A stretch of DNA of 63,644 nucleotides, filler included, from Folioceros fuciformis (taxonomy: Eukaryota), in the NCBI GenBank assembly GCA_049999805.1. It is 16 parts of 16 records of this genome, joined end to end, with 100 filler letters (N's around TTAATTAATTAA, not from the genome) between each part and the next. Parts side by side here need not be neighbours in the genome. Positions count along the whole stretch, not along the records: positions 6,753 to 15,510 come from JBNGIO010002962.1; 15 more parts are not named here. The stretch is one strand, 5' to 3'. The first letter of the stretch is position 1. The number at the start of each line of letters is the position of its first letter. The translations under genes and the position numbers were made by a program. Positions 6,653 through 57,985 of the stretch are shown here, piece after piece. A model generated the notes under the pieces. It saw nothing but the letters and a program-made list of their open reading frames with translations, had not been told where the DNA came from and ran no database searches.

Positions 6653-6752
6653 NNNNNNNNNNNNNNNNNNNNNNNNNNNNNNNNNNNNNNNNNNNNTTAA
6701 TTAATTAANNNNNNNNNNNNNNNNNNNNNNNNNNNNNNNNNNNNNNNNNNNN
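6653..6752. other. Artificial contig linker N44-TTAATTAATTAA-N44 (first of 15)
   Basis: Identical 100-nt linkers also start at 15511, 17639, 20784, 21958, 26348, 29185, 32165, 40092, 43764, 46860, 48926, 56858, 59341 and 62321. The 12-mer places stop codons in all six frames. Confidence 0.98.
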
Positions 6753-6799
6753 GCGGTCGCCTGATTGCTCAAGGACAGAAGGTTGGACGGATGTTCACC
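6753..6799 (+). mobile_element. Fragment of an older Copia pol that is the insertion target of Copia-A1
   Basis: Translates GRLIAQGQKVGRMFT, similar to RKLIAKGSRNGRMFT in Copia-J (48970-49833 ORF). Confidence 0.6.
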
Positions 6800-6974
6800 A
6801 GAGCGGAAACAGAACTCTTGCTTGAAAAACTCATGCTTTTTATTTCTCGTGAACAACATTTATATATATTCAGTTGACGGTTAAATAACCGCTTGTAACT
6901 TTAATAATCCTAAGTAAACTGAAACTATCCAAAACCAAACTAGGAACTAGGATTAGGAACTAGGGGTTTTTACA
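6800..6974 (-). repeat. Copia-A 3' LTR, 175 bp, TG...CT
   Basis: Reverse complement matches the 5' LTR at 29427-29601, including both positions where that copy differs from 26448-26622. Confidence 0.93.
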
Positions 6975-7056
6975 CTCCCTCTAGTTGAAGTTTTACTTAG
7001 AATAAATATCCTTTTATTTATTTATTTATTTAATTTATTTTATTTTCTTTGACCTT

Positions 7057-10000
7057 CTAACTTTTAACCAAAGCTAAGTCCTTCACTCCCAACGCTGCCC
7101 GGTGCTGCTCATGTTTGAAACGAGCCAGCGCCTTCGTTAGTACATCAGCTTGATTTTCCTCTGTTGCAACATATTGTAACTGGATTTGCTTCTCCTCCAC
7201 GAGTTGTCGAATGTAGTGAAACCTCAGCTCTACATGTTTGGTCCGTGAGTGATACACGGGATTCTGAGTCATAGCAATGGCCGATTGTGAGTCTGAAAAG
7301 AGAACAGTTGGATTATCAAACGGTCGACGCAGACCCTCCGAGAATCTACGATGGCACAACACCTCCTTCGCTGCTTCAGTACATGCAGAGTACTCCGCTT
7401 CTGCGGATGACAAACAGATTGTGTGTAGCCGCTTGCTACTCCATGATATAGCAGCAGATGCGGCCATAACTGCATAGGCTGCCGTGGACCGTCTCTTGTC
7501 AAGATCCCCTGCCCAATCGCTGTCGCTGAAAGCTGTAAGTAACATCTCTGCTGGCTCCGTACTTCCTCTCAATCTGTAAACAAGTCCATAAGCTGCCGTG
7601 CCCTTGAGATAACGAAAAACGCGCTTGGTTGTAGTCCAATGCATTTCACCATAACCCTCGAAATATTGACAAATCTGTGACACGGCTTTGCTTATATCAG
7701 GTCGAGTCGATACTTGCAGATATTGGAGTGAACCGCAGGCTGCGCGGTAAGGAATCTCTTGCATTCTTTCAATATCTCTAGCTGACAACGGTGTTGGCAT
7801 AGCTGATAGTTGTACTGAGGTAGACATTGGTGTTGCACAGGGTTTTGCAGTATCCATGCCAAATTTCTTAAGAACTTGTTGAACATACACCTCTTGAGAC
7901 AAGGTGAGAACCCCTTCAGCACGATTTCGAGTTACCTTGATGCCTAGAAAGGAATGAAGCTCACCCATGTCTGTCATGGCAAACCTGCTTGATAGAATCT
8001 TCTTAGCATATTCTAAAGTTCCGCCAGGTCCTGAACTGTTTGATATTAAAACAGTATCATCTACGTAAACAGCTAATATCACAAAACCTTGCGTGTTCCT
8101 AAGCAAAAACACATTCATGTCGGACGGATTCTGCTCAAAACCACAGGTCAGTAGATACTCTCGAAAACACCCAAACCACTTGTGTGGACTCTGCTTGAGC
8201 CCATATAATGCCTTCTTTAATTTGCAAACAAAATTCTCTTGTCCTACAGGTACCTCTACCCCTTGGGGTATCTCCATGAAGATGTCTTCATTAATTTTCC
8301 CATATAAGAACGCACTCTGGACATCCATTTGATGGATGTCCAGATCTGTATATGCTGCAAGAGCCACTAAGTGTCTTACTGAGCTTTGTCGTACTACTGG
8401 AGAAAAGGTCTCTAGGTAGTCCTCCCCGGCCTTCTGAGAGTAGCCCTTAACGACAAGCCGTGCCTTAAGCTTGTCGTGCGAACCATCAGCCTTGTATTTT
8501 GTCTTAAAGACCCATTTGGTCTTAATTGGTTTTCTTCCTCTAGGGAGTGGCACAAGCTCCCATGTTTTATTTCGATGAAGTGCATCTAACTCCTTCTTAA
8601 TTGCCTCTGACCATCCTCTTGCGTTCTCACTTGATAAAGCTTCATCGTAGGTCTGAGGATCACTTCCTCTTTCAGCGTCCTCTGCAGCAGCAGCTAGCTC
8701 ACTATTAATACTTACTTGGTGATCATATGTGAGAGGAGGCTCCCTCCATAGTTCTCTTGGTGGTCTTGTCCTTTGAGAACGTCGTGGTTGTTGATTTTGT
8801 GGATGAGGTAATACTGGTTGATTATCAAGACCATCTTGTGGCTGTGGCTCCCCACTTTGTGGATTATCCGGAAAAGATGCAGAGCTAGGTAGAGGACGTC
8901 CTCCACCTGGATCAATGGGATCGGCTGCCGTGGGAGGTGACTGAGGCTGCAACATAGGAACAGGAGTACCTGTCGGTGAAGGCTCAAGGAATCGTGGAAT
9001 CTGAAATTGAACTCCTTGTGGGTATTCCGTAACTTCAGGCTCATCAAAGGTATCAGTTCCAACACCTTCAGTGTTTCTCGAATCTTTCCACATAAGGTTC
9101 TCTCTAAATATCACGTTCCTTGCAAAAATCACCTTCCTTGTTGCAGGATCAATCAATTTAAAACCTTTCACTTCGTCAGAATAGCCGATAAACATCAATC
9201 TTTGCCCCTTTGCATCCCACTTTTGTCGTTTTTGTGAGGGCACATGCGCATAGGCCAGACACCCAAACACTTTGAGATGTTTAAGGTCTGGTTTTCTGGC
9301 AGTCCAGACTTCAAATGGAGTTTTTCTCTCAAGGCATTTTGTAGGTAGTCGGTTCTGGACGTGAGCAGCTACTGCCACAGCTTCAGCCCAGAAACTCTTC
9401 TCAACTCCTGCTGCTTGCAACATACATCTTGCTGAATTATTGAGGTCTTTATTACGTTTTTCCGCAACACCATTCTGCTCTGGGGTGTAGGCTACAGAAA
9501 AATGACGCTGGATGCCATGTTGCTTGCAGAAAATGTCAAACTCTCTAGATGTATACTCACCTCCGTTGTCAGAACGCAATGTCTTCAATTGACTAGATGT
9601 AAACCTTTGTGAGTAGCTCAAATACTCTTTGAATCTGTCGAATACTTGGTACCTAGCCGATAGAAAGTAGATGCAGGTGAACCTACTATAATCGTCGATG
9701 AAACTTACAAAGTAGCTGCTGCCACCAATTGATTTATACTCCATCGGTCCGCACACGTCAGTATGGACCAGGTCCAATACACGTGTGGTCTTGGATAAAC
9801 TGTTAGGATGAGGAAGTTTTTCCTGCTTACCTAATATACATGGCTCACAGTGATCACCCCGATGAACTGTGAACTTGGGAATTCCAAGAGCTAGGTCGTT
9901 GTTGACTAACTGCTGCAGCTTACGCATGGATGGATGTCCCAATCGCCGATGCCACAACTTCGTCAAATTGACATCAGTTTGAGTGACTTTAACACGTAAG

Positions 10001-10473
10001 TGTGTGGTTTTTATGGACTTGACGTCCAACAGAACTAAACCCTTTTCTGGGCGTCCTCTTATAAGTACTTGATCAGGTGACGACTTGAGACTTATAGTAG
10101 CCTCATCATCTTCTATCACCACCCGATAAAGTTTTAAATCTCCTAAGCTTATTGTAGAAAGGAGATTCTTTGTGAGCGCTGGTACATACAACACTGGATG
10201 AAGTTTAAGGTGCGCTCCTGAGGTCAGCTCCAGCGTTACAGTGCCCTCTCCCAGTATTGGGCATATTCGATCGTCTCCTAAAGCAACTCTTCTAGGAGGT
10301 TCAAATTTTACATAGTCTGAGATAATCTCCTTATCATAACAAAAATGGCTTGAAGCCCCAGAATCAAGAAACCAGCATGAACTATCAAAATCAGAGGTCA
10401 AGTTACATGTGACTATGAAACAGCCCGGAGAACTGGAAGGAGGAGAGTGTGAGGTTTTGTTGTTTACTGACAC
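7057..10473 (-). CDS. pol: Copia-A Pol polyprotein (protease, GAG-pre-integrase, rve integrase, RT, RNase H), uninterrupted
   Basis: WFLDSGASSH, LWHRRLGH, LVHTDVCGP, RSDNGGEY, QNGVAE, QMDVQSAFL, AVYVDD, SDSDWAG, RTKHVELRFHYIR, ADVLTK. Confidence 0.95.
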   Translation of the reverse strand: MSVNNKTSHSPPSSSPGCFIVTCNLTSDFDSSCWFLDSGASSHFCYDKEIISDYVKFEPPRRVALGDDRICPILGEGTVTLELTSGAHLKLHPVLYVPALTKNLLSTISLGDLKLYRVVIEDDEATISLKSSPDQVLIRGRPEKGLVLLDVKSIKTTHLRVKVTQTDVNLTKLWHRRLGHPSMRKLQQLVNNDLALGIPKFTVHRGDHCEPCILGKQEKLPHPNSLSKTTRVLDLVHTDVCGPMEYKSIGGSSYFVSFIDDYSRFTCIYFLSARYQVFDRFKEYLSYSQRFTSSQLKTLRSDNGGEYTSREFDIFCKQHGIQRHFSVAYTPEQNGVAEKRNKDLNNSARCMLQAAGVEKSFWAEAVAVAAHVQNRLPTKCLERKTPFEVWTARKPDLKHLKVFGCLAYAHVPSQKRQKWDAKGQRLMFIGYSDEVKGFKLIDPATRKVIFARNVIFRENLMWKDSRNTEGVGTDTFDEPEVTEYPQGVQFQIPRFLEPSPTGTPVPMLQPQSPPTAADPIDPGGGRPLPSSASFPDNPQSGEPQPQDGLDNQPVLPHPQNQQPRRSQRTRPPRELWREPPLTYDHQVSINSELAAAAEDAERGSDPQTYDEALSSENARGWSEAIKKELDALHRNKTWELVPLPRGRKPIKTKWVFKTKYKADGSHDKLKARLVVKGYSQKAGEDYLETFSPVVRQSSVRHLVALAAYTDLDIHQMDVQSAFLYGKINEDIFMEIPQGVEVPVGQENFVCKLKKALYGLKQSPHKWFGCFREYLLTCGFEQNPSDMNVFLLRNTQGFVILAVYVDDTVLISNSSGPGGTLEYAKKILSSRFAMTDMGELHSFLGIKVTRNRAEGVLTLSQEVYVQQVLKKFGMDTAKPCATPMSTSVQLSAMPTPLSARDIERMQEIPYRAACGSLQYLQVSTRPDISKAVSQICQYFEGYGEMHWTTTKRVFRYLKGTAAYGLVYRLRGSTEPAEMLLTAFSDSDWAGDLDKRRSTAAYAVMAASAAISWSSKRLHTICLSSAEAEYSACTEAAKEVLCHRRFSEGLRRPFDNPTVLFSDSQSAIAMTQNPVYHSRTKHVELRFHYIRQLVEEKQIQLQYVATEENQADVLTKALARFKHEQHRAALGVKDLALVKS

Positions 10474-10504
10474 TCCACGTTTTTGATCATCAAACTTCTT
10501 TTTC

Positions 10505-10736
10505 TAAGAAATTACATGCAGATGTAGATTTATTATAAAAATAACATTGTATATATTCAAGAAAAAGAGAGTAAGTAAAACATTAAAACTTAAACTTAAC
10601 TATTCATGAATGGGTGTGACTATTACTAACAGTCGTAACCCTAGCGAAGAGGTAAGACATTTTAAACTATACACACAATATGAAACTGGATATAATATAA
10701 CCCTAATCTCATTATGCCAACATCAATACTCCTTCA
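10505..10736 (-). repeat. Copia-B 3' LTR (TGAAGGAGTATTG...TTCTTA)
   Basis: Preceded by PPT AAGTGGGAG (10737-10745); its start resembles the Copia-D LTR start TAAAGAAGTATTG; the other end is defined by the junction with Copia-A. Confidence 0.75.
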
Positions 10737-10998
10737 CTCCCACTTGTTGGATTATGACGATTCGGACGTCTCCTCTTCGCCTTCTCTAACACGGGTCGAG
10801 TGTGAGACTGTGAGCTGAGCTGAAAGCTCCGCTGTGTGCATGTACTGGGTTGCGCCGACACCTTTGCCTTTAAAGAAACGCGATGGAGCGTATCTGCACA
10901 AACTTGGGTAGCAGGTGCGTCGCGACCCTTATAGCATCCCTCCTCGCTTCAAGTCCTTTATTTGTAAGCTGTTGGAGCGTAGGATCTCTGAGCTCAAG

Positions 10999-11610
10999 AT
11001 GTCGTCTTCAGCTACTGACTCCCCTCCTGCAAAGCGCCGTGTCTGCCATCGTGACAAGCTAGGGCGGTTTGTGAGCAAGCCGACTAGAACAGCCGCCTCC
11101 TCTCAGCAGCAAGGATCGGCAAAGATGCCTGCTCCTGCTGCTCAAGGTGGCAGCGGCGGAAGGCGTTCGCGAGGGAGGCCGCGCGGCACCACCAAAGCTT
11201 TTCTTGATCAGCGGCGCTCGTCAGAGACTACAGCCTATAAGACAAAGGCTGCTGTTGCGTGTAAGGCAGCTCCCCGCAAGACGGCTACCCCTAAAGAGAA
11301 GTCTCTTTCAAGGGATCAAAGTGCCAAGTTCCGCTTCAAAGCTGGTGAGTTCGCGTATGCTGATTCTGACTATAGGCCTACTGTGCCGATAAGATTTCCA
11401 GTTCCTACACACTCTGATGAGGAAACCAAGATTGTGAGCCTTGGTTCTTTTGCTATTCCTTGTACCCCTCTGTGGTATAAGTGCCCTTACACCCATCTGA
11501 AGATGATACGAGTGAGGATAGAGCACTGCCGCGAGTATCAGCGCCATGTGGTCAGCTTTTACAGTAAGTGTTCCGTGAGTGATGCACAGGGTTTTGTGCA
11601 AGGTTTATAG
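10999..11610 (+). CDS. Antisense accessory ORF of Copia-B: basic protein with an NLS-like motif and an AT-hook; C-terminus truncated by a deletion
   Basis: Open frame from 10915, first ATG at 10999; PAKRR, RDKLGRF and RSRGRPRG motifs; lies between pol and the 3' LTR on the opposite strand. Confidence 0.6.
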   Translation: MSSSATDSPPAKRRVCHRDKLGRFVSKPTRTAASSQQQGSAKMPAPAAQGGSGGRRSRGRPRGTTKAFLDQRRSSETTAYKTKAAVACKAAPRKTATPKEKSLSRDQSAKFRFKAGEFAYADSDYRPTVPIRFPVPTHSDEETKIVSLGSFAIPCTPLWYKCPYTHLKMIRVRIEHCREYQRHVVSFYSKCSVSDAQGFVQGL

Positions 11611-14600
11611 AACCCTGACTGTCTGTTTTGATCACTGTGCAGGTGGGGAGAGGTAGTCTGAGTTCATTGAAAAGCAGCTTGCACCAAGCAATTTCTTTAG
11701 AAGCGGCTGTGAGGACACGGTACTTGGCTTCTGTGCTTGAAAGAGCAACCGTTGGTTGCTTCTTGCTGGACCAACAGATTGGTCCCCCAGCAAACATGAC
11801 GATATATCCAGAGACAGATCTTCTACTGTCTATGTCACCAGCGTAGTCTGAATCGGTATATACATCCAGTTCAAGGGAGGCATCAGGTTTGTATTTGTAA
11901 ACGATTCCATACTGTGCTGTCCCCTTTAAGTATCGAAATACCCTCTTAACACAAGTCCAGTGCTCCTGTGCAGGGTTTTCCAAGTATTGTGAGAGCACAC
12001 TTGTGGAATATGCCACTTCAGGACGAGTAGTGTTTGCTGCATATATGAGCTTTCCTACTGCCTTGCGGTAAGGGATAGGAAGCATTTTGTCCTTTTCAGC
12101 TTGCGTTTGTGGGCTCATGGATTTGCTGAGCTTAAGTCCACTTGGTAGAGGTGTGACTGCAGGCTTTGCATCCTTGAGTCCAAGCTGGTCTACGCTATCA
12201 AGAAGGTATCTTGGTTGAGTGAGAGTTAAAACTCTTTTCTTTCGATCTCTCTGAATATGAATGCCAAGGCAGCTTTGTAAAGCTCCTAAGTTTGACATAT
12301 CGAACTTCTTGGATAGGAGGCCATTAATTTTTGTGATAAAGGAGGGACTGTTACATGCGAGTATCAAGTCGTCCACATACACAGCAAGGTAACATACAGT
12401 GTCTCCAGCCCTATAGACATACAGGCTACTGTCTGAAACACATTTGATGAAGCCTAAAGCTCGCAGTTCCTCATCTAAGACTGCATTCCATTCAAGAGCT
12501 GACTGTTTTAAACCATACAGGGTCTTGATTAGGCGAAGAACATGGTCCTCTTTTCCCTTTACTACGTAGCCCATTGGTTGCTGCATATAGATTTCAGTAT
12601 CCAGCTTGCCATGTAGGAAGGCTGTTTTGACGTCAAACATTTCCAACTCATAGTCATGGTGTGCTGCTACTGCGCAGAGAACACGAAACGTGGCTAGCTT
12701 CACCACAGGAGCATAAGTTTCCAGATAATCCAGACCTGGTACTTGGGAGAAGCCACGAGCAACGAGTCTGGCTTTGTACCTGTCAAAGGTACCATCTGCT
12801 TTAACCTTGAGTTTAAATACCCATTTACAGGACACCATTTTGCGTCCAGGAGGTAATTTTGCGAGTTCCCAAGTGCCATTCTTGATGAGGCTGTCATACT
12901 CAGACTGAACGGCCTTTTTCCACTCTGCAGCATCTGGCCTACTCATAGCTTCTTCATAGGTGCGAGGCTCTGTAGGGTCCAGACTCATAGCATTAGCACG
13001 TGCTGAACTTGACCTGAAATCATGTGATTGATAGTAATCAGGTGCACGTCTTTCTCTTGCAGGGTATCGACGTTCAGGTGGGGGTTCAGGATGTGGTAGC
13101 TGTTCAACTGCATCAGCATCATCATCACTGTCCAGAACAACGGCTGCATCGTCTGCAACGTCATCATAATCTGGATCTAGTATGTCCGGTTCTGGTTGTA
13201 GCTCAACAGCAATGGGAGGTTGCTGCTGCTGCTCATCAAGGTCAGCAAAAGCATCGTCCTCTGCTGGGTCAACTTGATTAACTTGATTATCTTGATTATC
13301 ATGCTCATCCCCCCCTGCAGGAGCAATCTCCTCAGGTGTTGAGTCATCAAAGAAAGTGATATTGGGGAGAACAGACAGATCATCACTATCATCTGGAGTG
13401 GGAGGTGTTCCCACTGGCGTCCAAACACGTCCTTCGTCAAAGGTAACGCTTCGTGCATATACCACCTTGTTCTGAGGGACATCATACAGTTTATAAGCTT
13501 TTATGCCCTCAGTGTAGCCTATCATAAGGAGTTTTCTGGCTTTTGCAGATAGCTTCTTACGCTTCTCCTTCGGGATGAAAGCATAAGCGATACAACCAAA
13601 GGTTCGAAGATGAAGGATAGACGGTTTCCTGCCAAAGAAAGCCTCATATGGCGTCTGACCTACAACTGCAGTGGTAGGTAATCTATTTCGTAAATACACA
13701 GCTGTCATTAGGGCCTCAGCCCAATAGGGCAATGGTAAGGTAGCCTGATGCAGCAAGGAGGAAACCATCTCCTGCAAAGTCAAATTCAGGCGCTCTGCAA
13801 CGCCATTTTGCTGTGGTGTATACACGACGGTGAGTTGGCGCCCAATACCCTCCTCTGCACAATATGTTTGAAATTCGTTAGATGTGAATTCTCCTCCGTT
13901 ATCGGAGCGGAGGGTCTTGAGCTGTTGTCCTGTCCATCTCTCAACAAATTTTAAATAAGTTTTGAATTGAGAGAAGGCTTCACTTTTGGCCTTCAAGATA
14001 TAAGCCATGACAAACCTTGTCTTGTCATCAGTGAAGGTTAAGAAATACTTGCCACCACCTATGGAAGGCTGTGACAGTGGCCCACAAATATCAGTGTGGA
14101 CTAGCTCGAGGACATCAAAGGCTCTGTGTGGGGTCCTGTTTTTGAAGGCTGCTTGGTGACGCTTAGATAACACACAAGCTTCACACAGGGGTAAGGTAGG
14201 AAGAGTGCCAATCTTTCCATCATAGTATAGGTCACTGGTAGCCAGTTTTTGCAGCTTAGCACCATGTGGATGACCTAACCTATTGTGCCATAATATGGCT
14301 TTGTCTGTTTGATGTGAAGGTGAGAGGTCACCTTGTGACGTCAAGTGGGACTGCACAGGGATACTGTGCAAGTGAAGTCGGAATAGATCATGGTCAGAAG
14401 ATCCATAAGCTAAAACCTTGCGATGATCAAATGCATCAAGGATCTGGCACTCTGTGGGGGTAAACAGAATGTGACTGTTGTTGTCTATGTTCAGTTGCCT
14501 GACAGAAATGAGGTTCCTAGTCATTCCAGGCACATAGTAAACATTGGTAAGGGACAGTTTTAGCCCTGAAGGGACAGGAAGGAACACTGTGCCCTTTCCT

Positions 14601-15508
14601 GGAGATACCAATGCCCTGTCATCACCTAAATAGACAAACTGATCCTTTACTTGTCTGTAGGTGGAGAAGGCACTTCTATCAAAGCAAATGTGCGCTGTTG
14701 CACCTGTGTCTAAGTACCACTCTTGAAATGGTCTAGACTCTGCTATGGCAGATAAGCATGTGGGAAAGACTAGAGGTTGAGCAAACTCCCTTACCCCTAC
14801 TGTCAGGGCGGAAGGAGAGGATTGCTTCTTTACTACAACGTGTGTTTCAGCATTCGCATTGCCCTCCTTGCGAGGTATGCCAGCCTGCTTCTTACGACAC
14901 TCGTTTTCCCAATGGCCGGGAATTTTGCACCAGTTGCATTTCCCGGTCTTCTTGGGTTTCTTCTGTGAGGAAGCTCCCTGTGAGCTCCCTGCAATAGCTG
15001 TAGTATTTTTGCCTCTAGGGTATGGTTTGTTTCCTCTGCCCTTGTTTGAGGTGTAGAGTGCTTGCTGTTTCCCATGCTTAGGTCCACCTCTCGTGGCTTC
15101 TTCTTGAAGAAGTGCTCCCACTAACTCAGAAAAGGTCATGGGAGGTAGCTTGATCCTGGCTGCAGATGCCAGTTTCTGAGCTTGTGCCTGTGAGGTGTTA
15201 TAAGAAGTCACAAAATTCGACCAGGAGGCAGGTAAAGAAAGCATTAAATAAAGTGCTAACATATCTTCCTTGATGGCTTCCTGTGTTGTTCCTTCCAACT
15301 TAGAAACAAGATGTCTGAAAGTAGCAATGTGCTTTTCTACTGAGTCACCATCTCGCATCTTGCAGAGTTGAAGGTTTTTGAGGGCTGCCATCTGACTGGT
15401 TGAATTTCCACCAGAGTAAAGCTCACGAAGTCTAGACCAGATATCTGATGCAGATACTGCTCCTGAAGTGTGCCTCAACATTTCAGAGGTTAGGCCACAC
15501 CGTATCAT
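11552..15508 (-). CDS. gag-pol: Copia-B Gag-Pol (5'-partial; RNase H C-terminus deleted)
   Basis: CNWCKIPGHWENEC knuckle, WYLDTGATAH, WHNRLGH, RSDNGGEF, AVYVDD, TDSDYAG. Ends NPVHHSR-NTYCKS* instead of the expected ...RTKHI...ADxLTK. Confidence 0.93.
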   Translation of the reverse strand: MIRCGLTSEMLRHTSGAVSASDIWSRLRELYSGGNSTSQMAALKNLQLCKMRDGDSVEKHIATFRHLVSKLEGTTQEAIKEDMLALYLMLSLPASWSNFVTSYNTSQAQAQKLASAARIKLPPMTFSELVGALLQEEATRGGPKHGKQQALYTSNKGRGNKPYPRGKNTTAIAGSSQGASSQKKPKKTGKCNWCKIPGHWENECRKKQAGIPRKEGNANAETHVVVKKQSSPSALTVGVREFAQPLVFPTCLSAIAESRPFQEWYLDTGATAHICFDRSAFSTYRQVKDQFVYLGDDRALVSPGKGTVFLPVPSGLKLSLTNVYYVPGMTRNLISVRQLNIDNNSHILFTPTECQILDAFDHRKVLAYGSSDHDLFRLHLHSIPVQSHLTSQGDLSPSHQTDKAILWHNRLGHPHGAKLQKLATSDLYYDGKIGTLPTLPLCEACVLSKRHQAAFKNRTPHRAFDVLELVHTDICGPLSQPSIGGGKYFLTFTDDKTRFVMAYILKAKSEAFSQFKTYLKFVERWTGQQLKTLRSDNGGEFTSNEFQTYCAEEGIGRQLTVVYTPQQNGVAERLNLTLQEMVSSLLHQATLPLPYWAEALMTAVYLRNRLPTTAVVGQTPYEAFFGRKPSILHLRTFGCIAYAFIPKEKRKKLSAKARKLLMIGYTEGIKAYKLYDVPQNKVVYARSVTFDEGRVWTPVGTPPTPDDSDDLSVLPNITFFDDSTPEEIAPAGGDEHDNQDNQVNQVDPAEDDAFADLDEQQQQPPIAVELQPEPDILDPDYDDVADDAAVVLDSDDDADAVEQLPHPEPPPERRYPARERRAPDYYQSHDFRSSSARANAMSLDPTEPRTYEEAMSRPDAAEWKKAVQSEYDSLIKNGTWELAKLPPGRKMVSCKWVFKLKVKADGTFDRYKARLVARGFSQVPGLDYLETYAPVVKLATFRVLCAVAAHHDYELEMFDVKTAFLHGKLDTEIYMQQPMGYVVKGKEDHVLRLIKTLYGLKQSALEWNAVLDEELRALGFIKCVSDSSLYVYRAGDTVCYLAVYVDDLILACNSPSFITKINGLLSKKFDMSNLGALQSCLGIHIQRDRKKRVLTLTQPRYLLDSVDQLGLKDAKPAVTPLPSGLKLSKSMSPQTQAEKDKMLPIPYRKAVGKLIYAANTTRPEVAYSTSVLSQYLENPAQEHWTCVKRVFRYLKGTAQYGIVYKYKPDASLELDVYTDSDYAGDIDSRRSVSGYIVMFAGGPICWSSKKQPTVALSSTEAKYRVLTAASKEIAWCKLLFNELRLPLPTCTVIKTDSQGSINLAQNPVHHSRNTYCKS

Positions 15509-15837
15509 GTNNNNNNNNNNNNNNNNNNNNNNNNNNNNNNNNNNNNNNNNNNNNTTAATTAATTAANNNNNNNNNNNNNNNNNNNNNNNNNNNNNNNNNN
15601 NNNNNNNNNNCCACTCCTTCCCACCTCTTCTCTATCTTTCCCATTGCTCATGCTCCTCCCCTAGAGGCTGGCTCAGCCACCAAGGGTAAACAATTGCAGG
15701 GGAAGACTTAGCGGGCGACCATCCAGCAACGAAGAGACGGCGTCCGCAGATCTTTCAAGATCAGACATCCTCTGAAGTCTCAGGATAGTCTAAGAGGTGG
15801 TAGATCCTTGTGGTGGTAGGGCCAGGAGCTCATCCTT

Positions 15838-20734: not shown

Positions 20735-22057
20735 AGCCGATCCTAGTTTCGGTTGTCTTCGAAAATTCAACCGTCGATGGATCNNNNNNNNNNNNNNNNN
20801 NNNNNNNNNNNNNNNNNNNNNNNNNNNTTAATTAATTAANNNNNNNNNNNNNNNNNNNNNNNNNNNNNNNNNNNNNNNNNNNNCCGGTTGGGCTACTGTC
20901 GGTTTCCCTTCCACGACGGTCGTCCAACCGGCTACCGTCTCCCAATCATCACACTCCGGTTTTTCGCCTAAGTCCACAACTACCTAAGCCCTTACCCATT
21001 TCATGTTTCTTATTTTCCAGGGGGGGGGTACATATGTAGACACCTAAGTGCCCCCGCACTACCAAGGGCCAAGGACACCCTCGTCCACACTTCTCCTTGG
21101 TCCTATCACTCAATCCTATCAAATCACCAAGGGCCAAGGAGCCTTTTGGGTATAAATAACCAAATATTATTTTCATACTAAGCCGCTTCACTCGCATCTT
21201 CACAAAAAAAAACACTACCTGTTCATTCTGTTCTTCAAAATGGGAGTCCCGAAAGTTTTTTTCCTCTACACCAGGCATTCCAGGAGGGCGACTTGCACCA
21301 GGCGGACTGAGCTGGGGGATGCAACAGCAGTTGGAGGGATGGAGGACTCTCAGGGACCCCAGGAGAGCAGAGGACAGGCAGCCCGAGGTAGCCCAAGGGA
21401 GGAAGGGGTAAGCACCTCCTTTATGACAGAGGGTGAGGTTATTCTATAGTATGAGGAGGAGGCCTCTTATTAGCCAGGCCTCTATGCGGAAGGAGCCCAA
21501 GTTCTGAAGCTGTTTTTGTATGTATGTATGGGCATAGGAAGGACGCGAGGCTATGGCCTACAATTGAAGACCCCAGGGGCATCTACTACTACCGCTAACG
21601 GGTAGGGGGGCTGCCTCATTGCTATTCTGAGGCAGTCCTGGAGGAACTAATGGAAGAGGAGGCATAGCAATGGGTTGAATGGAAGCCTATCCTCATCCTC
21701 AGTAATCGGCGACAGAGGGAGGAGAGGGATTTCCTGTAACGGGACCCACCTGCGCTGCCTCCAGCGAGGGCCAGCAGTAGCAGCAGTGGGGTGGAGGTCA
21801 TGTAGGAGGACCTACCTGACCAGCGGTGGGGCAGGAGGGCCAGAGGCGGACCAGTAAGGGGAGGAGTGCGACGGCCAGGAGGAAGGCGCCAGCGGCAAAG
21901 AGGGAGGGGATAGTAATTACAGTCTAGACTAGCTTTTTTTAGATTGTTTTTGCTTGGNNNNNNNNNNNNNNNNNNNNNNNNNNNNNNNNNNNNNNNNNNN
22001 NTTAATTAATTAANNNNNNNNNNNNNNNNNNNNNNNNNNNNNNNNNNNNNNNNNNNN

Positions 22058-25000
22058 ATTGGGGCTCTGTACCAGGAAGAACAAAGCAAAATTTTTTCTC
22101 AGACTGTTCCTAAGAACAGATCAGAAAAAATACTGGCTATTAACCAAAGGGTTTTTAGAGGAAAGGGAAAAATGTCTGCAAACTCTCATAATAAACCTCT
22201 TGCAACAGTTAAGTGCCCTGGAAATTGCAATTGGTGTGGAATTGCAGGCCACTGGGAAAGAGACTGCAGGAGGAAGAAAGCAAGCGAGCCGCAGCGTACA
22301 CAGAAGAGTGTTGCAGCTGCATCAGCCAAATCTAAAACACAAGGTGACACTAAGTCAGTAGTGAAGATACTTACTGTTAGTTTGGCACGTACTTTTCCTG
22401 CTGAAGACATCTGGTTTTTGGACTCCGGTGCAACTTCTCATATCTGCAGAAACAGGGAACTTTTCTATGAGTTTACCCCCAATTACACAAACAAACGTGT
22501 TCTACTTGGTGATGAAACCAACAGGACTAGTCTACCTATTCAGGGTAGTGGGGTCTGCAAGTTCCCTCTGCATGAGGGTTCGATACTTACACTTCAAGAT
22601 GTATTGTATGTTCCATCAATGGCTAAAAATTTGTTCTCCTTGAGCAAATTGATGCAGATTGGCAAATATGAGATGAAGGCTACAGAACAAGTTTGCCTTT
22701 TCTACCTACAGACCACACCTGAGTTCCTTGTTTTTGAAGGAGTTCTTGAATATGGCTTGTATAGGCTGGATGTATATGTTCTCCAACATAAGGCTGCTAT
22801 GGTTTCCAAACAGTCTGAGCATCTTGCTGTCATGTGGCATGCACGATTGGGACATGTTAATAGGCGTAAGCTGTTAGACATGTCCCTACAAGACTGTCAT
22901 AATGAGCAATTACCTCAAGTATTCAAGGAGCTACCTCCTTGTGAAGCCTGTATAATCGCGAAACAGAAGGAACATCCATTCCCCTCAACAGCCTCCTACA
23001 GAGCCACAAAAATTCTTGAGTTAGTACATGCCGATATCTCAGGCAAGATACAAGTTGCTTCATTAGGTGGAGCTTTGTATTACCTGTGTATTACGGACGA
23101 CTACTCTCGTTATACTTGGACGTTTCCACTACACCTCAAAAGTGATACCTTTGAGATGTTTCAGGAATGGTTACAGTTAGTAGAAAGACAAACTGGCAAA
23201 CTTCTCAAGTGTCTTCGGACTGATAATGGCACTGAATTTGTGAACCGTACTATTGATTCCTATCTGCAAGATAAAGGCATACAACGTCAACTCACTGTAC
23301 CATACACACCACAACAAAACGGTGCTGCAGAAAGAAAGAATCAAACACTTCTGGCTATGACCAGAAGTATGCTACTATGGGCAGGCTTACCCCAAACTTT
23401 TTGGGCTGAAGCTAATGTAGCTGCCACTTACATTTTGAATCGGCTCTTTACCAGTTCGATCTCCTCCCGGACTCCCTATGAAGTTATGTGGAATAGAAAG
23501 CCAAGCTTACTTCACCTTCGTGTTTTTGGCTCTAAGGCTTTTGCTCTCGTTCCGGGGGAGAAACGTCGCAAGTTGGATCCTCGAGCCCAAGCCCTCATAT
23601 TTGTAGGATACAGTGAGCGATCGAAGGCATACAAATTGTATGACCCTGTCAACAATTGTGTAGTGTTAGCTCGTTCAGTCACTTTCTTGGAAACTCAGCA
23701 ACCTCAACTACTCAATCAACCATTATTACAACCGCCTCCAGAAGACTTACTTTCCGCTGCTGAACCACTTGATTCATCATATCCTTCTGATGCTGTTGAT
23801 GAATTGCTTGAGGATGCTGATGTTGACCCTCCTGTCCAAACATATACCCCACTTGTTCATACTGATCAGGAGGGAAATGAACATCCTGCTGTGTTCGAAC
23901 AGGATCCCCCTGCTGCAAATTTACAGGTCGTTAAGGAGCCCTTACCTATTGATCCAACTGCAGAGGGAGTACCTTTACCTGAACATAGGACAGTGGAAGA
24001 TGTGCCCCAACCTGCACAGCCTGATCCAGTAGCTGATCCTCCCCGTAGATCTAGCAGAAATAGGCTACCTTCTGAACAATGGAAAGAACCTAGATATGAG
24101 TCCATTGATTTCAGAACTTCATATGCAAATGCTTGCCATTCAGCTTCAAGTACAATACACCTAGAACCTAAGACACTTGACGAGGCATTTTCTGGCCCTA
24201 ATAAGGACAAATGGAAGTTTGCCGTCGATGATGAGTACAATTCTCTCATTAAGAATCATACTTGGGTGCTAGCAGATCTCCCCAAGGGCAGAAAACCGAT
24301 ATCCTGTAAATGGGTATTCAAACTTAAGTTAAATGCCAAAGGAGAGATTGCAAGACACAAAGCCAGACTAGTTGCTAGAGGTTTTACTCAGGTTGAGGGT
24401 CTGAATTATCAAGAAACATTCTCACCTGTTGTCCGAGCTCAATCTATAAGGATGATCTTAGCTCTGGCTGCTGAACTGAATCTTGACCTTCAACAAATGG
24501 ACGTGTGTACTGCATATTTGTATGGGGCATTAAACGAAGAACTTTATATGATACAACCTGAAGGCTATGAAGATAAACAACACCCAAATAAGGTCCTCAA
24601 GTTGCTGAAAACCATATATGGCTTGAAGCAGAGTGGCCGAATCTGGTACCTCACTATCCATGAGTATCTTCTTGCCAATTCCTTTATACAGAGTGTTGCT
24701 GATGGCACAGTATACAAGATCACTCGTGGACAACACTTTCTTATACTGGCCATATATGTGGATGACTTGATTCTAGCAACAAACCACCAACCTTTGTTAG
24801 CAGAAGTCAAGAGTGTGCTGAGCAGCAAGTTTGATATGAAGGATATAGGAGAGTTGAAATTCTGTTTAGGAATACAACTCCTACGTGTTAGATCAGAAGG
24901 GTTGCTAATAATCAGTACCAATATGTCCAGGAACTGTTAGTAATATTTAAACTTGAGCAAGCACGCCCTGCAACTACACCCATGGCTATAGGAATGAAGC

Positions 25001-25746
25001 TTACCAGCCTACAGTGTCCCCAGGAGTGTGATGAGATAAGAGAAATGGCCACAGTCCCCTACCGGCAAGCTGTAGGCAGTTTACTGTTTATTGCCAACTG
25101 GACAAGGCCGGATATACAATATGCGGTCAGCACCTTGTCACAATTTCTGGAGAACCCCGACAGGGCTCATTGGGTGGCAGTTAAGTGGGTGATTCGTTAT
25201 TTAAAGGGTACAGAATACACCGGGCTTATTTGCAAATCATTTGGCACTGGAAGACTTACCCCAACTGGTTTTACAGATGCCGATTGGGCCTCTGATAGTG
25301 ATTCGAGACGCAGCATATCATATTCCTTCATGCTGTCCTCTGCAATGGTAAGCTGGAGCAGCAAGAAGCAAACGTCAATAGCCTTATCTTCTACAGAAGC
25401 AGAATACAAAAGCTTAACAGAAGCTTCTAAAGAACTCGAATGGGAACGAACCTTCCTGTTAGACTTGGGGCAACAACAGGACAGTCCCACTTCTCTGCTG
25501 TGTGATAATATGTCAGCCCTTGATCTCGTTTCTCATCCTAAATACCATGCAAGGACTAAACACATAGAGATACAACATCATTACATCAGAGATGTTGTGG
25601 AAAGAGGGATTGCCGTTGTCAACTACATATCTACAGACTTGAACACAGCCGATATACTAACAAAAGGGCTGCCCAAGCAAAAACACTGTCAACATATGGA
25701 AGGGTTAGGCCTGGCAGATTTTTCTGTCTACTCAAGACATATTTAA
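22058..25746 (+). pseudogene. gag-pol: Copia family C gag(3' part)-pol with one frameshift near 24915-24950
   Basis: CNWCGIAGHWERDC, WFLDSGATSH, RTDNGTEF and AIYVDD in ORF 22172-24940; RNase H TDADWAS...ADILTK in ORF 24982-25746. Confidence 0.93.
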
Positions 25747-26347: not shown

Positions 26348-26622
26348 NNNNNNNNNNNNNNNNNNNNNNNNNNNNNNNNNNNNNNNNNNNNTTAATTAAT
26401 TAANNNNNNNNNNNNNNNNNNNNNNNNNNNNNNNNNNNNNNNNNNNNTGTAAAAACCCCTAGTTCCTAATCCTAGTTCCTAGTTTGGTTTTGGATAGTTT
26501 CAGTTTACTTAGGATTATTAAAGTTACAAGCGATTATTTAACCGTCAACTGAATATATATAAATGTTGTTCACGAGAAATAAAATGCATGAGTTTTTCAA
26601 GCAAGAGTTCTGTTTCCGCTCT

Positions 26623-26634
26623 TGGTATCAGAGC
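26623..26634 (+). promoter_or_regulatory. PBS complementary to initiator tRNA-Met
   Basis: TGGTATCAGAGC; also at 29602, 38075 and 53643 (+) and at 34333-34344 and 50967-50978 (-). Confidence 0.92.
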
Positions 26635-27420
26635 CTCATAGATCGAGCGAAGCCGCACGATCGGAGCTGCGACCAGTGCAGTGCCCATTCAGATCAGGGC
26701 GCCCTGCGCAGCATGACATGTGGGAGGCGATTCTTGCTTGATCACGGTTCAGATTTGTTCGCAAGATCCACGTGTGCCGTAAGCTCAGCCTCTGCCCAGC
26801 ACTCATCGGCTGTGCAAGAATCTGGGCGCAGATCACACGATCGGCGGTGCAAAGTGGCTTGCAGCAATCTGAATCCTGCTCACTCAAGTCCAGGCAGGCA
26901 CGATTGCGGTGCGGCGGCCTGCAGCAACGTGCGCCCTCGGCTGTGCAGAGGCTCAAGCAGTAGCAGTCGGGCGCAAGAGCGAGCAGCGGATCAGTACAGC
27001 AGCGGCGCGCGCGTGCCATCTTTGGTGGCACCGGGCGGTCGCAGGAGAGGCGGCAGCCGCAGGAGCATCAGAACCCGCGGCGCAGGCTCGCAGCCGACTG
27101 GGCACCACCGCGCGCCCAAGGGTAGCCGCGCCGCGTGTGCAGCGGCCTGTAGCGTAAACGGCCTAGGCTGCCGGTGCGCGGCCTGTGCTTCATCCTGCCC
27201 AGCAATCTTGCAACATTGTAGGCGGCATCCGACCGAGGCTTTCGGACCTGTTGGATGTTTTGGAAACTTCACTCCATACTTCTGACTCGGCATCCTCTGG
27301 GTTTACAAAGGAGCGTCCAACAAGTTCGTTTGCTAGCACTTATCGATCTGCATCTGTACAGTGTGAAACACCTCAGCGTCCTTCAAGTGATCCCGATACT
27401 CAGGTTAGGTTGTGAGGTGT

Positions 27421-29184
27421 ATGCCTCCTCGAAGCAAGGGAGTAATTCCAACTCCTCCACCACCTCCACCTAAGCACAACCGTCACCCTCTAGTCAATAA
27501 ATCAACAAACATGGCTGGAAATATAGTGAACAACAACTACACAACCTTTGATTTTAAGGAGCGTGATAGATTTGCGGGAAAAGACTTTGAGATCTGGGAA
27601 ACCAGAGTAAGAGCTATCTTGGAAGATAAGGATTTGTGGCCTGTCGTCAGCGGGAGCAAACTGAAGCCGGTACCTGCTGATGCAGCAAATCCTACTGCAG
27701 CAGAGACCCGTGATATTCAAGCCTGGGAAGCCTCGGACAGGAAGGCAAGAACGATCCTGATGCAAGCTTTAACAACTGAGACTATGCATCATATCTTAAG
27801 CACAGAAACATCCAAGGCTGCTTGGGATCAGATCAGGGCCAGCTACGCTTCAAAGGACACTCTGTCCTTAGTTCTCACAACCCAGCAATTTTATCAACAT
27901 AAGATGAGTGATCACGACACAGTTGACAAGCACATCACTCAATTTCGGTTGAATAGAACAAAACTAGCATCTATGGGAACTGTAATTACTGAGGAGCATG
28001 CAGCTGTAATCCTGCTTGCTTCCTTACCAAGCAGCTGGTCTACCTTCATCACGTCACAACAATCAAGGATAAACCTCACCTTATCCATGGTCATTGCAGC
28101 CATGTATCAACATGAAACAACTAAGCGCATTAGTTCAGGTGCGTCATCAGGTGGAGAGGGAGGAGCCTTGGCAGCAAAAGGACGGTTTCAAAGGTTTAAC
28201 AAACCGTGGCAGAAAAAGGATCAGCAAGGACAAGCATCTCAAAATCCAAATAAGCGTTTTCACAAATGCAGCTACTGTAAAAAGCCTGGACATTATTGGA
28301 AGGAATGTAGGAAAAAGAAGTTTGATGATCAAAAACGTGGAGTGTCAGTAAACAACAAAACCTCACACTCTCCTCCTTCCAGTTCTCCGGGCTGTTTCAT
28401 AGTCACATGTAACTTGACCTCTGATTTTGATAGTTCATGCTGGTTTCTTGATTCTGGGGCTTCAAGCCATTTTTGTTATGATAAGGAGATTATCTCAGAC
28501 TATGTAAAATTTGAACCTCCTAGAAGAGTTGCTTTAGGAGACGATCGAATATGCCCAATACTGGGAGAGGGCACTGTAACGCTGGAGCTGACCTCAGGAG
28601 CGCACCTTAAACTTCATCCAGTGTTGTATGTACCAGCGCTCACAAAGAATCTCCTTTCTACAATAAGCTTAGGAGATTTAAAACTTTATCGGGTGGTGAT
28701 AGAAGATGATGAGGCTACTATAAGTCTCAAGTCGTCACCTGATCAAGTACTTATAAGAGGACGCCCAGAAAAGGGTTTAGTTCTGTTGGACGTCAAGTCC
28801 ATAAAAACCACACACTTACGTGTTAAAGTCACTCAAACTGATGTCAATTTGACGAAGTTGTGGCATCGGCGATTGGGACATCCATCCATGCGTAAGCTGC
28901 AGCAGTTAGTCAACAACGACCTAGCTCTTGGAATTCCCAAGTTCACAGTTCATCGGGGTGATCACTGTGAGCCATGTATATTAGGTAAGCAGGAAAAACT
29001 TCCTCATCCTAACAGTTTATCCAAGACCACACGTGTATTGGACCTGGTCCATACTGACGTGTGCGGACCGATGGAGTATAAATCAATTGGTGGCAGCAGC
29101 TACTTTGTAAGTTTCATCGACGATTATAGTAGGTTCACTGCATCTACTTTCTATCGGCTAGGTACCAAGTATTCGACAGATTCA
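27421..29184 (+). CDS. gag-pol: Copia-A Gag-Pol, 3'-partial
   Basis: FDFKERDRFAGKDFEIW, UBN2-type gag, CSYCKKPGHYWKEC, WFLDSGASSH, LWHRRLGH; 1-nt deletion near 29137. Confidence 0.92.
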
Positions 29185-29284: not shown

Positions 29285-29426
29285 GAGCCCTCGAATCCAT
29301 CATCGAGTTCATCAAGTCCGACCCTCCACCCACAGCAGCAAGGAACCCCATCGCTCCTTCGTGGGAACGAAACCCAATGTCTCAACGACAGTGGGATAAG
29401 TGTGGCCACTAAAGGTGGGTCCCGTC
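29285..29426 (+). repeat. Gypsy LTR fragment, insertion target of Copia-A3
   Basis: Matches ~32692-32830 and ~57310-57450. Confidence 0.85.
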
Positions 29427-32164
29427 TGTAAAAACCCCTAGTTCCTAATCCTAGTTCCTAGTTTGGTTTTGGATAGTTTCAGTTTACTTAGGATTATTAA
29501 AGTTACAAGCGGTTATTTAACCGTCAACTGAATATATATAAATGTTGTTCACGAGAAATAAAAAGCATGAGTTTTTCAAGCAAGAGTTCTGTTTCCGCTC
29601 TTGGTATCAGAGCCTCATAGATCGAGCGAAGCCGCACGATCGGAGCTGCGACCAGTGCAGTGCCCATTCAGATCAGGGCGCCCTGCGCAGCATGACATGT
29701 GGGAGGCGATTCTTGCTTGATCACGGTTCAGATTTGTTCGCAAGATCCACGTGTGCCGTAAGCTCAGCCTCTGCCCAGCACTCATCGGCTGTGCAAGAAT
29801 CTGGGCGCAGATCACACGATCGGCGGTGCAAAGTGGCTTGCAGCAATCTGAATCCTGCTCACTCAAGTCCAGGCAGGCACGATTGCGGTGCGGCGGCCTG
29901 CAGCAACGTGCGCCCTCGGCTGTGCAGAGGCTCAAGCAGTAGCAGTCGGGCGCAAGAGCGAGCAGCGGATCAGTACAGCAGCGGCGCGCGCGTGCCATCT
30001 TTGGTGGCTCCGGGCGGTCGCAGGAGAGGCGGCAGCTGCAGGAGCATCAGAACCCGCGGCGCAGGCTCGCAGCCGCCTGGGCACCACCGCGCGCCCAAGG
30101 GTAGCCGCGCCGCGTGTGCAGCGGCCTGTGGCGTAAACGGCCTAGGCTGCCGGTGCGCGGCCTGTGCTTCACCCTGCCCAGCAATCTTGCAACATTGTAG
30201 GCGGCATCCGACCGAGGCTTTCGGACCTGTTGGATGTTTTGGAAACTTCACTCCATACTTCTGACTCGGCATCCTCTGGGTTTACAAAGGAGCGTCCAAC
30301 AAGTTCGTTTGCTAGCACTTATCGATCTGCATCTGTACAGTGTGAAACACCTCAGCGTCCTTCAAGTGATCCCGATACTCAGGTTAGGTTGTGAGGTGTA
30401 TGCCTCCTCGAAGCAAGGGAGTAATTCCAACTCCTCCACCACCTCCACCTAAGCACAACCGTCACCCTCTAGTCAATAAATCAACAAACATGGCTGGAAA
30501 TATAGTGAACAACAACTACACAACCTTTGATTTTAAGGAGCGTGATAGATTTGCGGGAAAAGACTTTGAGATCTGGGAAACCAGAGTAAGAGCTATCTTG
30601 GAAGATAAGGATTTGTGGCCTGTCGTCAGCGGGAGCAAACTGAAGCCGGTACCTGCTGATGCAGCAAATCCTACTGCAGCAGAGACCCGTGATATTCAAG
30701 CCTGGGAAGCCTCGGACAGGAAGGCAAGAACGATCCTGATGCAAGCTTTAACAACTGAGACTATGCATCATATCTTAAGCACAGAAACATCCAAGGCTGC
30801 TTGGGATCAGATCAGGGCCAGCTACGCTTCAAAGGACACTCTGTCCTTAGTTCTCACAACCCAGCAATTTTATCAACATAAGATGAGTGATCACGACACA
30901 GTTGACAAGCACATCACTCAATTTCGGTTGAATAGAACAAAACTAGCATCTATGGGAACTGTAATTACTGAGGAGCATGCAGCTGTAATCCTGCTTGCTT
31001 CCTTACCAAGCAGCTGGTCTACCTTCATCACGTCACAACAATCAAGGATAAACCTCACCTTATCCATGGTCATTGCAGCCATGTATCAACATGAAACAAC
31101 TAAGCGCATTAGTTCAGGTGCGTCATCAGGTGGAGAGGGAGGAGCCTTGGCAGCAAAAGGACGGTTTCAAAGGTTTAACAAACCGTGGCAGAAAAAGGAT
31201 CAGCAAGGACAAGCATCTCAAAATCCAAATAAGCGTTTTCACAAATGCAGCTACTGTAAAAAGCCTGGACATTATTGGAAGGAATGTAGGAAAAAGAAGT
31301 TTGATGATCAAAAACGTGGAGTGTCAGTAAACAACAAAACCTCACACTCTCCTCCTTCCAGTTCTCCGGGCTGTTTCATAGTCACATGTAACTTGACCTC
31401 TGATTTTGATAGTTCATGCTGGTTTCTTGATTCTGGGGCTTCAAGCCATTTTTGTTATGATAAGGAGATTATCTCAGACTATGTAAAATTTGAACCTCCT
31501 AGAAGAGTTGCTTTAGGAGACAATCGAATATGCCCAATACTGGGAGAGGGCACTGTAACGCTGGAGCTGACCTCAGGAGCGCACCTTAAACTTCATCCAG
31601 TGTTGTATGTACCAGCGCTCACAAAGAATCTCCTTTCTACAATAAGCTTAGGAGATTTAAAACTTTATCGGGTGGTGATAGAAGATGATGAGGCTACTAT
31701 AAGTCTCAAGTCGTCACCTGATCAAGTACTTATAAGAGGACGCCCAGAAAAGGGTTTAGTTCTGTTGGACGTCAAGTCCATAAAAACCACACACTTACGT
31801 GTTAAAGTCACTCAAACTGATGTCAATTTGACGAAGTTGTGGCATCGGCGATTGGGACATCCATCCATGCGTAAGCTGCAGCAGTTAGTCAACAACGACC
31901 TAGCTCTTGGAATTCCCAAGTTCACAGTTCATCGGGGTGATCACTGTGAGCCATGTATATTAGGTAAGCAGGAAAAACTTCCTCATCCTAACAGTTTATC
32001 CAAGACCACACGTGTATTGGACCTGGTCCATACTGACGTGTGCGGACCGATGGAGTATAAATCAATTGGTGGCAGCAGCTACTTTGTAAGTTTCATCGAC
32101 GATTATAGTAGGTTCACCTGCATCTACTTTCTATCGGCTAGGTACCAAGTATTCGACAGATTCA
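29427..32164 (+). mobile_element. Copia family A, copy 3 (5' LTR 29427-29601, PBS 29602-29613)
   Basis: Nearly identical to copy 2; inserted after CCGTC in a Gypsy LTR. Confidence 0.95.
30400..32164 (+). CDS. gag-pol: Copia-A Gag-Pol, 3'-partial
   Basis: Same protein as 27421-29184 apart from one D/N change and the absence of the 1-nt deletion. Confidence 0.92.
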
Positions 32165-32264: not shown

Positions 32265-32863
32265 AGGGGCTTGCCCCTAGCTCTTGATTGTAAAGGGTGT
32301 GTCTTTCTCTCAACCTGTCCACTCTTGTTCCTTGCTTGGTCAAGTGCTGTAGGCCGGCCATGTCTCATGGCGTCTGGTAAGGTTGTGGGGAGGAGATACC
32401 CAAGAGGGGAGTGTGTTCCCTTCTTCCTTTTGTTTGGGGTTAGTCTAGTGACTCTTGCCGGGTAGGAGGAGTCCGTAGGGAAGTGTAGAAGGTAGTGGTG
32501 TCGTTGCTGGTTGCTGGTAGTTGTTAGTGTTGGTGCTGGAGCGAGAGAGTGAGTGAAGTGAGTGAAGGAAGTCGCAGATCTGAGAGGTTAGAGTCGTTGT
32601 AGTGACTGGAGTGAGTTTGTGGGCACCAAGAGAGGTGCAGCTGACCACCGGACAGCGAGGCCTGTCCTACGCCTGATCGAAGCTGGAGGGGAGCCCTCGA
32701 ATCCATCGTCGAGTTGATCAAGTCCGACTTTCCATCCACAGCAGCAAGGAACCCCATCGCTCCTTCGTGGGAACGAAACCCAATGTCTCAACGACACTGG
32801 GATAAGTGTGGCCACTAAAGGTGGAACCCATTGGCAATCAGTGCCCGGGGTTTTGCCTCCACA
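32265..32863 (+). repeat. Gypsy LTR 3' part (solo or 3' LTR)
   Basis: Ends GGTTTTGCCTCCACA like the LTR at 3403 but is not followed by a PBS. Confidence 0.8.
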
Positions 32864-57888: not shown

Positions 57889-57985
57889 TGATAAAATATA
57901 GGTAGTATAGGGCCCTATTCATTAGGGCCATTTTAGATGCTACCATATAATGTAGTTACCTAGTAGTTATTCTAGGAAGTTAGTA

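Follow-up and report, generated by a model that had tools for sequence, protein, structure and literature searches.

Antisense extra open reading frames (ORFs) have long been noted in plant LTR retrotransposons, although they lack a functional explanation. The locus described below raises the question of whether a frame that runs antisense to gag-pol, in a compact Ty1/copia element of the non-seed plant Folioceros fuciformis, is an accessory gene of that element or an open frame of some other origin. The frame lies in a 63,644-nt stretch of DNA from assembly GCA_049999805.1, which was analysed as a whole and is referred to as the window. This window consists of short contigs joined by 15 linkers of 100 nt, each composed of 44 N, TTAATTAATTAA and another 44 N; the linkers are of the six-frame stop type and are found at 6653-6752, at 15511-15610 and at 13 more places. 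Owing to this concatenation, adjacency across linkers is artificial. The contig that bears the ORF spans positions 6753-15510.

For copy number and junctions, we relied on the contigs of the public run X1, which stems from one sample of the same organism and may be the source of the assembly. Two runs, both from one sample, contained most of the stretch, and no RNA run was listed among those containing it. Details of the X1 contigs are taken from 19 of 206 aligned pieces, 17 of 143 loose ends and 40 of 313 variant rows.

A nested Copia element and the place of its antisense frame

The ORF is carried by an element here called Copia-B, which is inserted into a second element, Copia-A (Table 1). 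Along the Copia-B polyprotein, Pfam families follow the canonical order of Retrotran_gag_2, Pol_BBD, gag_pre-integrs, rve, SH3_retrovirus and RVT_2. The frame is cut in gag by the contig end, the 5' LTR lies outside the contig, and RNase H ends about 56 aa earlier than in the neighbouring Copia-A. Downstream of pol, on the element's strand, about 810 nt without pol similarity lead to a polypurine-tract (PPT)-like run and a short LTR, which starts with TG at an uncertain point within 10722-10728 and ends at 10505. From 10504, the sequence matches two further Copia-A copies in the window at 100% identity, placing the insertion just after the Copia-A gag zinc knuckle. Three X1 contigs extend beyond 10505 into a 12-mer resembling a primer-binding site (PBS), the reverse complement of which begins TGGTATCAGAGC; we take this to be the tRNA-Met-type PBS of Copia elements. 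Most Copia lineages are reported to use tRNA-Met as primer (PMC6317226).

Because the LTR end at 10505 coincides with both the Copia-A break and the PBS junction, and because PPT and LTR adjoin, the ORF segment lies inside a bona fide inserted element: 10505-10728 is the 3' LTR of the nested Copia-B, and the 810-nt stretch is its pol-to-PPT spacer. Copia-B thus combines the domain order, PPT-like run and LTR of a Ty1/copia element, with the PBS-like 12-mer contributed by X1 contigs. Its pol has no close relative, as identity reaches at most 48% among the best 120 of 4383 matches, and many of the nearest relatives are compact elements, their proteins measuring about 1300 aa and their contigs 4.1-5 kb. 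Elsewhere in the window, 26448-29184 and 29285-32164 hold 99-100% identical Copia-A 5' halves that stop at the same end base and are likely redundant assemblies of one repeat.

Table 1. Features of the Copia-B locus, in coordinates of the window (strand "." where none applies)
Feature	Position	Strand	Basis
Copia-A PR-INT-RT-RH, recipient of the Copia-B insertion	7060..10504	-	Pfam, repeat comparison, tblastn
Short AT-rich 3' LTR of Copia-B, ~220 nt	10505..10728	-	X1 depth, contig junctions, Copia-A identity break
Polypurine-tract-like run, AAGTGGGAGTGAAGGAG	10729..10745	-	Sequence
Spacer between PPT and open frame	10749..10911	+	Sequence reading
29 in-frame open codons 5' of the ATG, presumed 5' leader	10912..10998	+	Frame reading
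Native portion of the antisense frame (P0001 codons 1-192)	10999..11574	+	First ATG to deletion joint
PAKRR basic cluster, NLS-like (residues 10-14)	11026..11040	+	Motif scan
RDKLGRF (residues 18-24)	11050..11070	+	Motif scan
RGRPRG, AT-hook-like core within GRRSRGRPRGTTK (residues 58-63)	11170..11187	+	Motif scan
FRFKAGEFAYA (residues 111-121)	11329..11361	+	Motif scan
Copia-B gag-PR-INT-RT-RH polyprotein frame	11555..15508	-	Pfam; tblastn against Copia-A
Deletion joint, 3 nt common to both flanks	11572..11574	.	X1 loose ends, frame reading
11 codons and stop made by the deletion; antisense of RNase H, non-native	11575..11610	+	X1 loose ends, frames

On the plus strand, the stop-to-stop open frame spans 10912..11610 and counts 232 codons. 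Its first ATG, at 10999 and with an A at -3, opens a predicted protein of 203 aa, termed P0001. The ATG is located about 270 nt inward of the PPT/LTR boundary (~10722-10728), and the ORF, antisense to Copia-B gag-pol, overlaps pol by its final ~58 nt only; pol ends at ~11555-11563. Both the position, between the pol end and the PPT and 3' LTR, and the orientation, plus against a minus-strand gag-pol, are those of the class known as aORF-3R. The initial annotation had described a frame of more than 200 codons opposite to pol, starting about 260 nt inside the 3' LTR boundary of a Copia element; the frame is real, and its antisense location in the gap from pol to the 3' LTR is supported. The short spacer on the PPT side of the frame would be the sole room for a promoter of the ORF's own, unless the LTR drives it.

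This copy was also said to be internally deleted, and X1 contigs indeed diverge from it at 11572-11574 on both sides. The main X1 pol contig (1216 nt, depth 178.5) matches 12659-11572 and continues for 128 further nt, which on the minus strand open with TKHVEVEYHF, the canonical RNase H continuation after ...NPVHHSR. A second X1 contig follows the ORF region to 11574 and then carries 164 nt of other sequence, so that this copy lacks more than 164 nt of the high-depth form. On the minus strand, the 30 letters seen past 11574 are open in just one frame (NGDADIKVD), which continues in phase, with one codon across the joint, into EHLL and a stop at 11561-11563. The Copia-B pol frame as found in the window is shifted and ends at 11552-11554. 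These frames suggest a location of both break points in the pol tail, with 11561-11563 as the native pol stop. The deletion removes the pol C-terminus, whereas its effect on the antisense ORF is limited to the final 11 codons, which are an artefact of it; codons 1-192 are native. Without the deletion, the ORF frame stays open for at least 10 further codons shown (LSTFMSASPL), corresponding to a native length of at least 202 codons.

Frame length and the predicted protein

Across the 830-nt non-pol spacer (10745-11574), the ORF frame is open over 221 codons, and the other five frames hold 11, 22, 6, 11 and 13 stops. This length was reached in any of the six frames by 0.2% of 2000 dinucleotide-preserving shuffles of the spacer. 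Scaled to the 63-kb window, the rate corresponds to about 0.15 such frames expected by chance, for an ORF that was chosen post hoc from a repeat-rich window of that size. A chance origin of the length is unlikely, though not overwhelmingly so. No tandem repeat was found within the ORF, and the open frame is thus not explained by one. The unique segment contains no internal stop codon, and the frame terminates only in antisense pol sequence. GC content by codon position was 0.53/0.58/0.51 for the ORF versus 0.55/0.42/0.42 for the Copia pol genes. A codon model favoured the ORF frame by 18.6-33.8 log units, with two of the 15 training stretches out of frame; as this margin is about what missing stops alone would give, the result was treated as uninformative.

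Residues 1-192 of P0001, in which S, A, R, K, T and P are abundant, have a pI of 10.4, with 38 lysines and arginines versus 14 aspartates and glutamates. The four motifs quoted in the initial annotation all occur in P0001 at the places given there, and its description of a strongly basic protein with an AT-hook-like core and an NLS-like cluster is borne out. The core is embedded in GRRSRGRPRGTTK (residues 53-65), which includes RSRGRPRG and presumably fits the AT-hook consensus of an R-G-R-P core with flanking basic residues. RGRP was present in 0.9% of 200,000 composition shuffles. Pfam yielded no AT_hook match at E<=10, a short motif model of the kind easily lost to HMMER filters, and at that threshold none of its families matched P0001, including Transposase_28 (PF04195) and the Plant Mobile Domain (PF10536). 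A single-sequence AlphaFold model reached a mean pLDDT of 43.6, with 165 of the 203 residues below 50 and only residues 11-30 at about 70; residues 100-203 remained at 30-45 and showed scattered short strands only. P0001 is mostly disordered. One earlier suggestion fell away at this point: FRFKAGEFAYA had been likened to the start of PWWP or Tudor domains, a resemblance that is unsupported because the protein has no Pfam family at E<=10, no relative and no confident fold, with no domain apparent in the AlphaFold model. A resemblance of RDKLGRF to the end of CCT/NF-YA-type basic motifs was likewise dropped, being without profile support.

Searches for relatives of P0001 were run against several collections. 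Comparison with PDB sequences gave nothing significant (E 0.05-0.13, artificial ankyrins only), and of the 127 candidates from a word-indexed protein search not one reached E<=0.01. Against 1.84 billion representatives, HMMER produced two matches only, both of which were rejected as spurious, the matched proteins being internally repetitive and aligned in 4-14 stretches. The ESM Atlas held no usable match, 91 pattern matches in JGI metagenome loci included none that was confirmed, and an Rfam search found nothing. Within the 63-kb window, no other copy of P0001 or its ORF was found.

The window contains several further open frames. A sense-strand ATG frame of 240 codons precedes Copia-A gag on two near-identical contigs (26563-27285 and 29542-30264, plus strand); it is rich in Arg, Ser, Ala and Cys, is unlike P0001 and may be an extra 5' ORF or an open LTR or leader frame. 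Downstream of a second Copia pol (22010-25746, plus strand), a frame of about 170 codons runs antisense to the contig end (25834-26347, minus strand) and is unrelated in sequence to P0001. Open frames at 32588-33091 and 57207-57914, both on the minus strand, are 87% identical over 91 residues and belong to repeats D4/D7, part of another repeated element. No similarity to P0001 was found among the window's other extra ORFs. Finally, 46252-46859 (plus strand) holds a fragment of a PLS-type pentatricopeptide-repeat (PPR) gene, for which a liverwort, lycophytes and ferns supply the best named relatives, at no more than 58% identity.

Copy number, variation and competing origins

Depth in X1 was calculated as the mean per contig and summed per 100-nt bin. 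The ORF region showed values of 141-278, with one bin at 667, compared with about 180-235 for Copia-B pol away from conserved RT/RH motifs, 381-564 for the LTR and 50-62 for Copia-A. The ORF region thus matches pol and has about half the depth of the LTR, which argues for membership of a multi-copy family and against a one-off capture. Such a pattern would be expected of an internal segment in a young family in which solo LTRs are few, and the ORF segment most likely belongs to the Copia-B family. A one-off capture or a chimera had been named beforehand as the outcome that would undo the proposal; X1 contig depth, from one sample, indicates a segment that is part of a repeated family. The bin at 11411-11511, with its depth of 667 versus 141-278 in adjacent bins, may in part be common to other repeats.

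Four X1 contigs of low depth (7-11x), among the 19 of 206 pieces, lie on 10960-11445 and are 10-19% diverged. Three of them align over their full length; the fourth leaves 45 nt unaligned and has a 103-nt diverged stretch. Apart from one 15-nt in-frame deletion at 11273 and two gap letters, they carry no indels. Within 10999-11574, no variant occurred among 40 of the 313 variant rows. The Copia-B family looks young, and the open frame could therefore persist without selection. A further contig, of depth 77, joins sequence up to 10749, 11550-11571 and sequence from 11706 onwards, and might either be without the ORF segment or have other sequence in its place. Together with depth arithmetic, it had hinted at an 'ORF-less' Copia-B subfamily, which we did not accept, as the anchors span 22 nt; contigs of depth ~79 align elsewhere in pol in similar patches, which suggests a diverged subfamily rather than a deletion form. 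Three other runs gave depth outside the ORF region only, namely X3 (organism B) in 10 of 30 bins, X4 in 2 of 30 and X5, a run guessed to be RNA, in 3 of 30, their uncovered bins being uninformative.

We tentatively favour the view that the ORF, an antisense extra ORF (aORF-3R, or eORF-3'R) borne by the family, is a real accessory gene of a young, multi-copy Ty1/copia family. Only somewhat less probable is an unselected frame in a non-coding, cis-acting or filler spacer, open by chance and through the youth of the family, its motifs being by-products of an Arg/Gly/Pro/Ser/Ala-rich translation. Such an origin would account for a P0001 that has no homologue, domain or confident fold in the searches run, for its disordered, low-complexity composition, for codon-position GC values unlike those of pol and for a unique segment with no stop of its own. 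High-depth copies also look near-identical, leaving little time for decay, and the putative proteins of surveyed extra ORFs are described as highly heterogeneous and doubtful in function (PMC6317226). Chance would supply roughly 0.15 such frames per 63-kb window; the length itself, however, was attained in just 0.2% of shuffles, and even the contigs diverged by 10-19% show nothing over the ORF beyond the 15-nt in-frame deletion and the two gap letters. Furthermore, a spacer of at least 0.8 kb is unusual beside the compact nearest pol relatives with their 4.1-5 kb contigs.

An unlikely origin is the capture of a host-gene fragment, taken up in antisense by one Copia-B lineage before its amplification. 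The ORF would then represent the 5' part of a lineage-specific gene, which fits a frame that has an ATG and a leader while its own stop is missing from the segment, and the source gene with its paralogues would account for the diverged contigs; those shown, at 7-11x, are confined to 10960-11445, inside the ORF, an extent that rests on 19 of 206 aligned pieces. LTR retrotransposons are documented to take up host sequences (PMC7264820), and a host source gene would be missed here given that the proteome of the organism is apparently absent from protein libraries, as the PPR fragment with its matches at 58% or below indicates. Against this, no relative in other organisms surfaced among the 1.84 billion representatives, and transduced ORFs are described as occurring in one or a few copies (PMC11963269), whereas the depth here equals that of pol.

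An assembly chimera, in which a segment foreign to Copia-B was joined to it on a short unplaced contig, is very improbable: the window does consist of short unplaced contigs joined by N/TTAATTAATTAA linkers, the X1 contigs shown break at 11572-11574 on both sides and 9% of sampled words are missing from the best-matching run, but the 3-nt joint resembles an illegitimate-recombination deletion and not a graph-overlap artefact, the ORF is contiguous with a PPT and an LTR whose far end forms clean insertion and PBS junctions, its depth is that of pol and half that of the LTR, and the minus-strand reading of the ORF-side contig past 11574 gives a single open frame, in phase to the stop at 11561-11563, as expected of a pol tail.

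Likeness to known antisense genes and its meaning

Antisense ORFs between pol and the 3' LTR are described as conserved in several plant LTR-retrotransposon families, some of their products being nuclear or predicted to bind DNA (PMC7264820, PMC11963269). In Grande, RIRE2, Retand and other elements, some of these ORFs occur in the majority of copies and in different species; the Grande product is nuclear, that of Retand carries Transposase_28, and an own or LTR-proximal antisense promoter has been proposed for the ORFs of these three elements (PMC7264820, PMC11963269). The Copia-B frame shares the antisense pol-to-3' LTR position of maize Grande gene23, rice RIRE2 and Silene Retand (TRP28) as described there and, like them, has no clear cellular homologue and a suspected nuclear or DNA-binding character. 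In contrast, those three are reported as non-chromovirus Ty3/gypsy elements of flowering plants with a POL-3' LTR distance of 2.9-6.6 kb, whereas Copia-B, from a non-seed plant, belongs to Ty1/copia, is compact and has a spacer of about 0.8-1 kb. P0001 lacks Transposase_28 or any other Pfam domain and shows no sequence similarity to their ORFs; from its sequence, it appears to share no domain with any described aORF.

Within Ty1/copia, the REXdb survey (Neumann et al. 2019) reports extra ORFs of at least 250 codons in 582 elements, mostly on the sense strand of SIRE, where eORF-3'F is the dominant Copia case at 74% (PMC6317226). According to its Additional file 5, an eORF-3'R occurs in 1% of SIRE elements, and Bianca and Ikeros have an eORF in a few percent, with unclear column assignment (PMC6317226). 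For the non-seed-plant lineages Bryco and Lyco, the survey gives no eORF of at least 250 codons (PMC6317226). Like the Copia eORFs of REXdb, the present ORF is an extra frame in the 3' part of its element; it differs in being antisense and in measuring 203-232 codons in a deleted copy. At 232 codons from stop to stop and 203 from the ATG, it falls below the 250-codon threshold of the survey in this copy, and it is not of the SIRE-type eORF-3'F kind, being antisense to a spacer in which the three sense frames hold 6-13 stops. An antisense extra ORF of known kind, rare in Copia, is plausible. A literature search at the level of abstract openings retrieved nothing relevant on an AT-hook or antisense ORF in Copia or in non-seed plants.

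Two further comparisons concern the product. HTLV-1 HBZ is the bZIP product of a retroviral antisense gene under the control of the 3' LTR, and both its expression and its function are proven. Like this gene (PMC11963269), the present frame lies antisense at the 3' end of an element that is reverse-transcribed, and it may likewise encode a basic nuclear regulator. P0001, in turn, is a predicted protein with no bZIP and no relationship to HBZ. With HMGA-type AT-hook proteins it has in common an R-G-R-P core with basic flanks in a disordered basic region, but it differs from AT-hook proteins, in which several hooks or an additional partner domain are usual, in its single motif and in its lack of a Pfam AT_hook match.

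If the ORF is an accessory gene, an intact element would read, on its own strand, LTR, PBS of tRNA-Met type, gag-pol, a spacer of at least 0.8 kb, PPT and LTR. The spacer would be almost filled by the opposite-strand frame, starting about 270 nt inside the 3' LTR and running tail-to-tail towards or into the pol end, and the antisense transcript would start in the PPT-proximal spacer or in the 3' LTR. We infer that the ORF is translated and that its product would be a small, basic, largely disordered nuclear protein contacting nucleic acid, probably DNA, through the AT-hook-like RGRP and the flanking basic residues. Its function is a matter of speculation: by analogy with the Grande gene23 and Retand TRP28 proteins, it may have an accessory role in regulation, nuclear import or chromatin contact, and one short motif and the composition would be compatible with a possible chromatin-binding or anti-silencing role. 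A more far-reaching proposal, which we consider improbable, is that a Ty1/copia element of a non-seed land plant evolved its own antisense AT-hook accessory gene, overlapping pol tail-to-tail and transcribed from the 3' end, whose orphan nuclear protein binds AT-rich LTR or host chromatin and thereby steers integration or counters silencing, as an independent Copia counterpart of Grande gene23 or HTLV HBZ.

Antisense extra ORFs have been described almost only from large Gypsy elements of flowering plants. Should the Copia-B frame prove unselected, it would exemplify the ease with which motif-bearing orphan ORFs arise in retrotransposon spacers. If it is conserved in a compact Copia element of a non-seed plant, such accessory genes would be seen to arise repeatedly, about 0.8 kb would suffice for an antisense accessory gene, and a gene of this type would become open to study in an element that is small, young and probably active.
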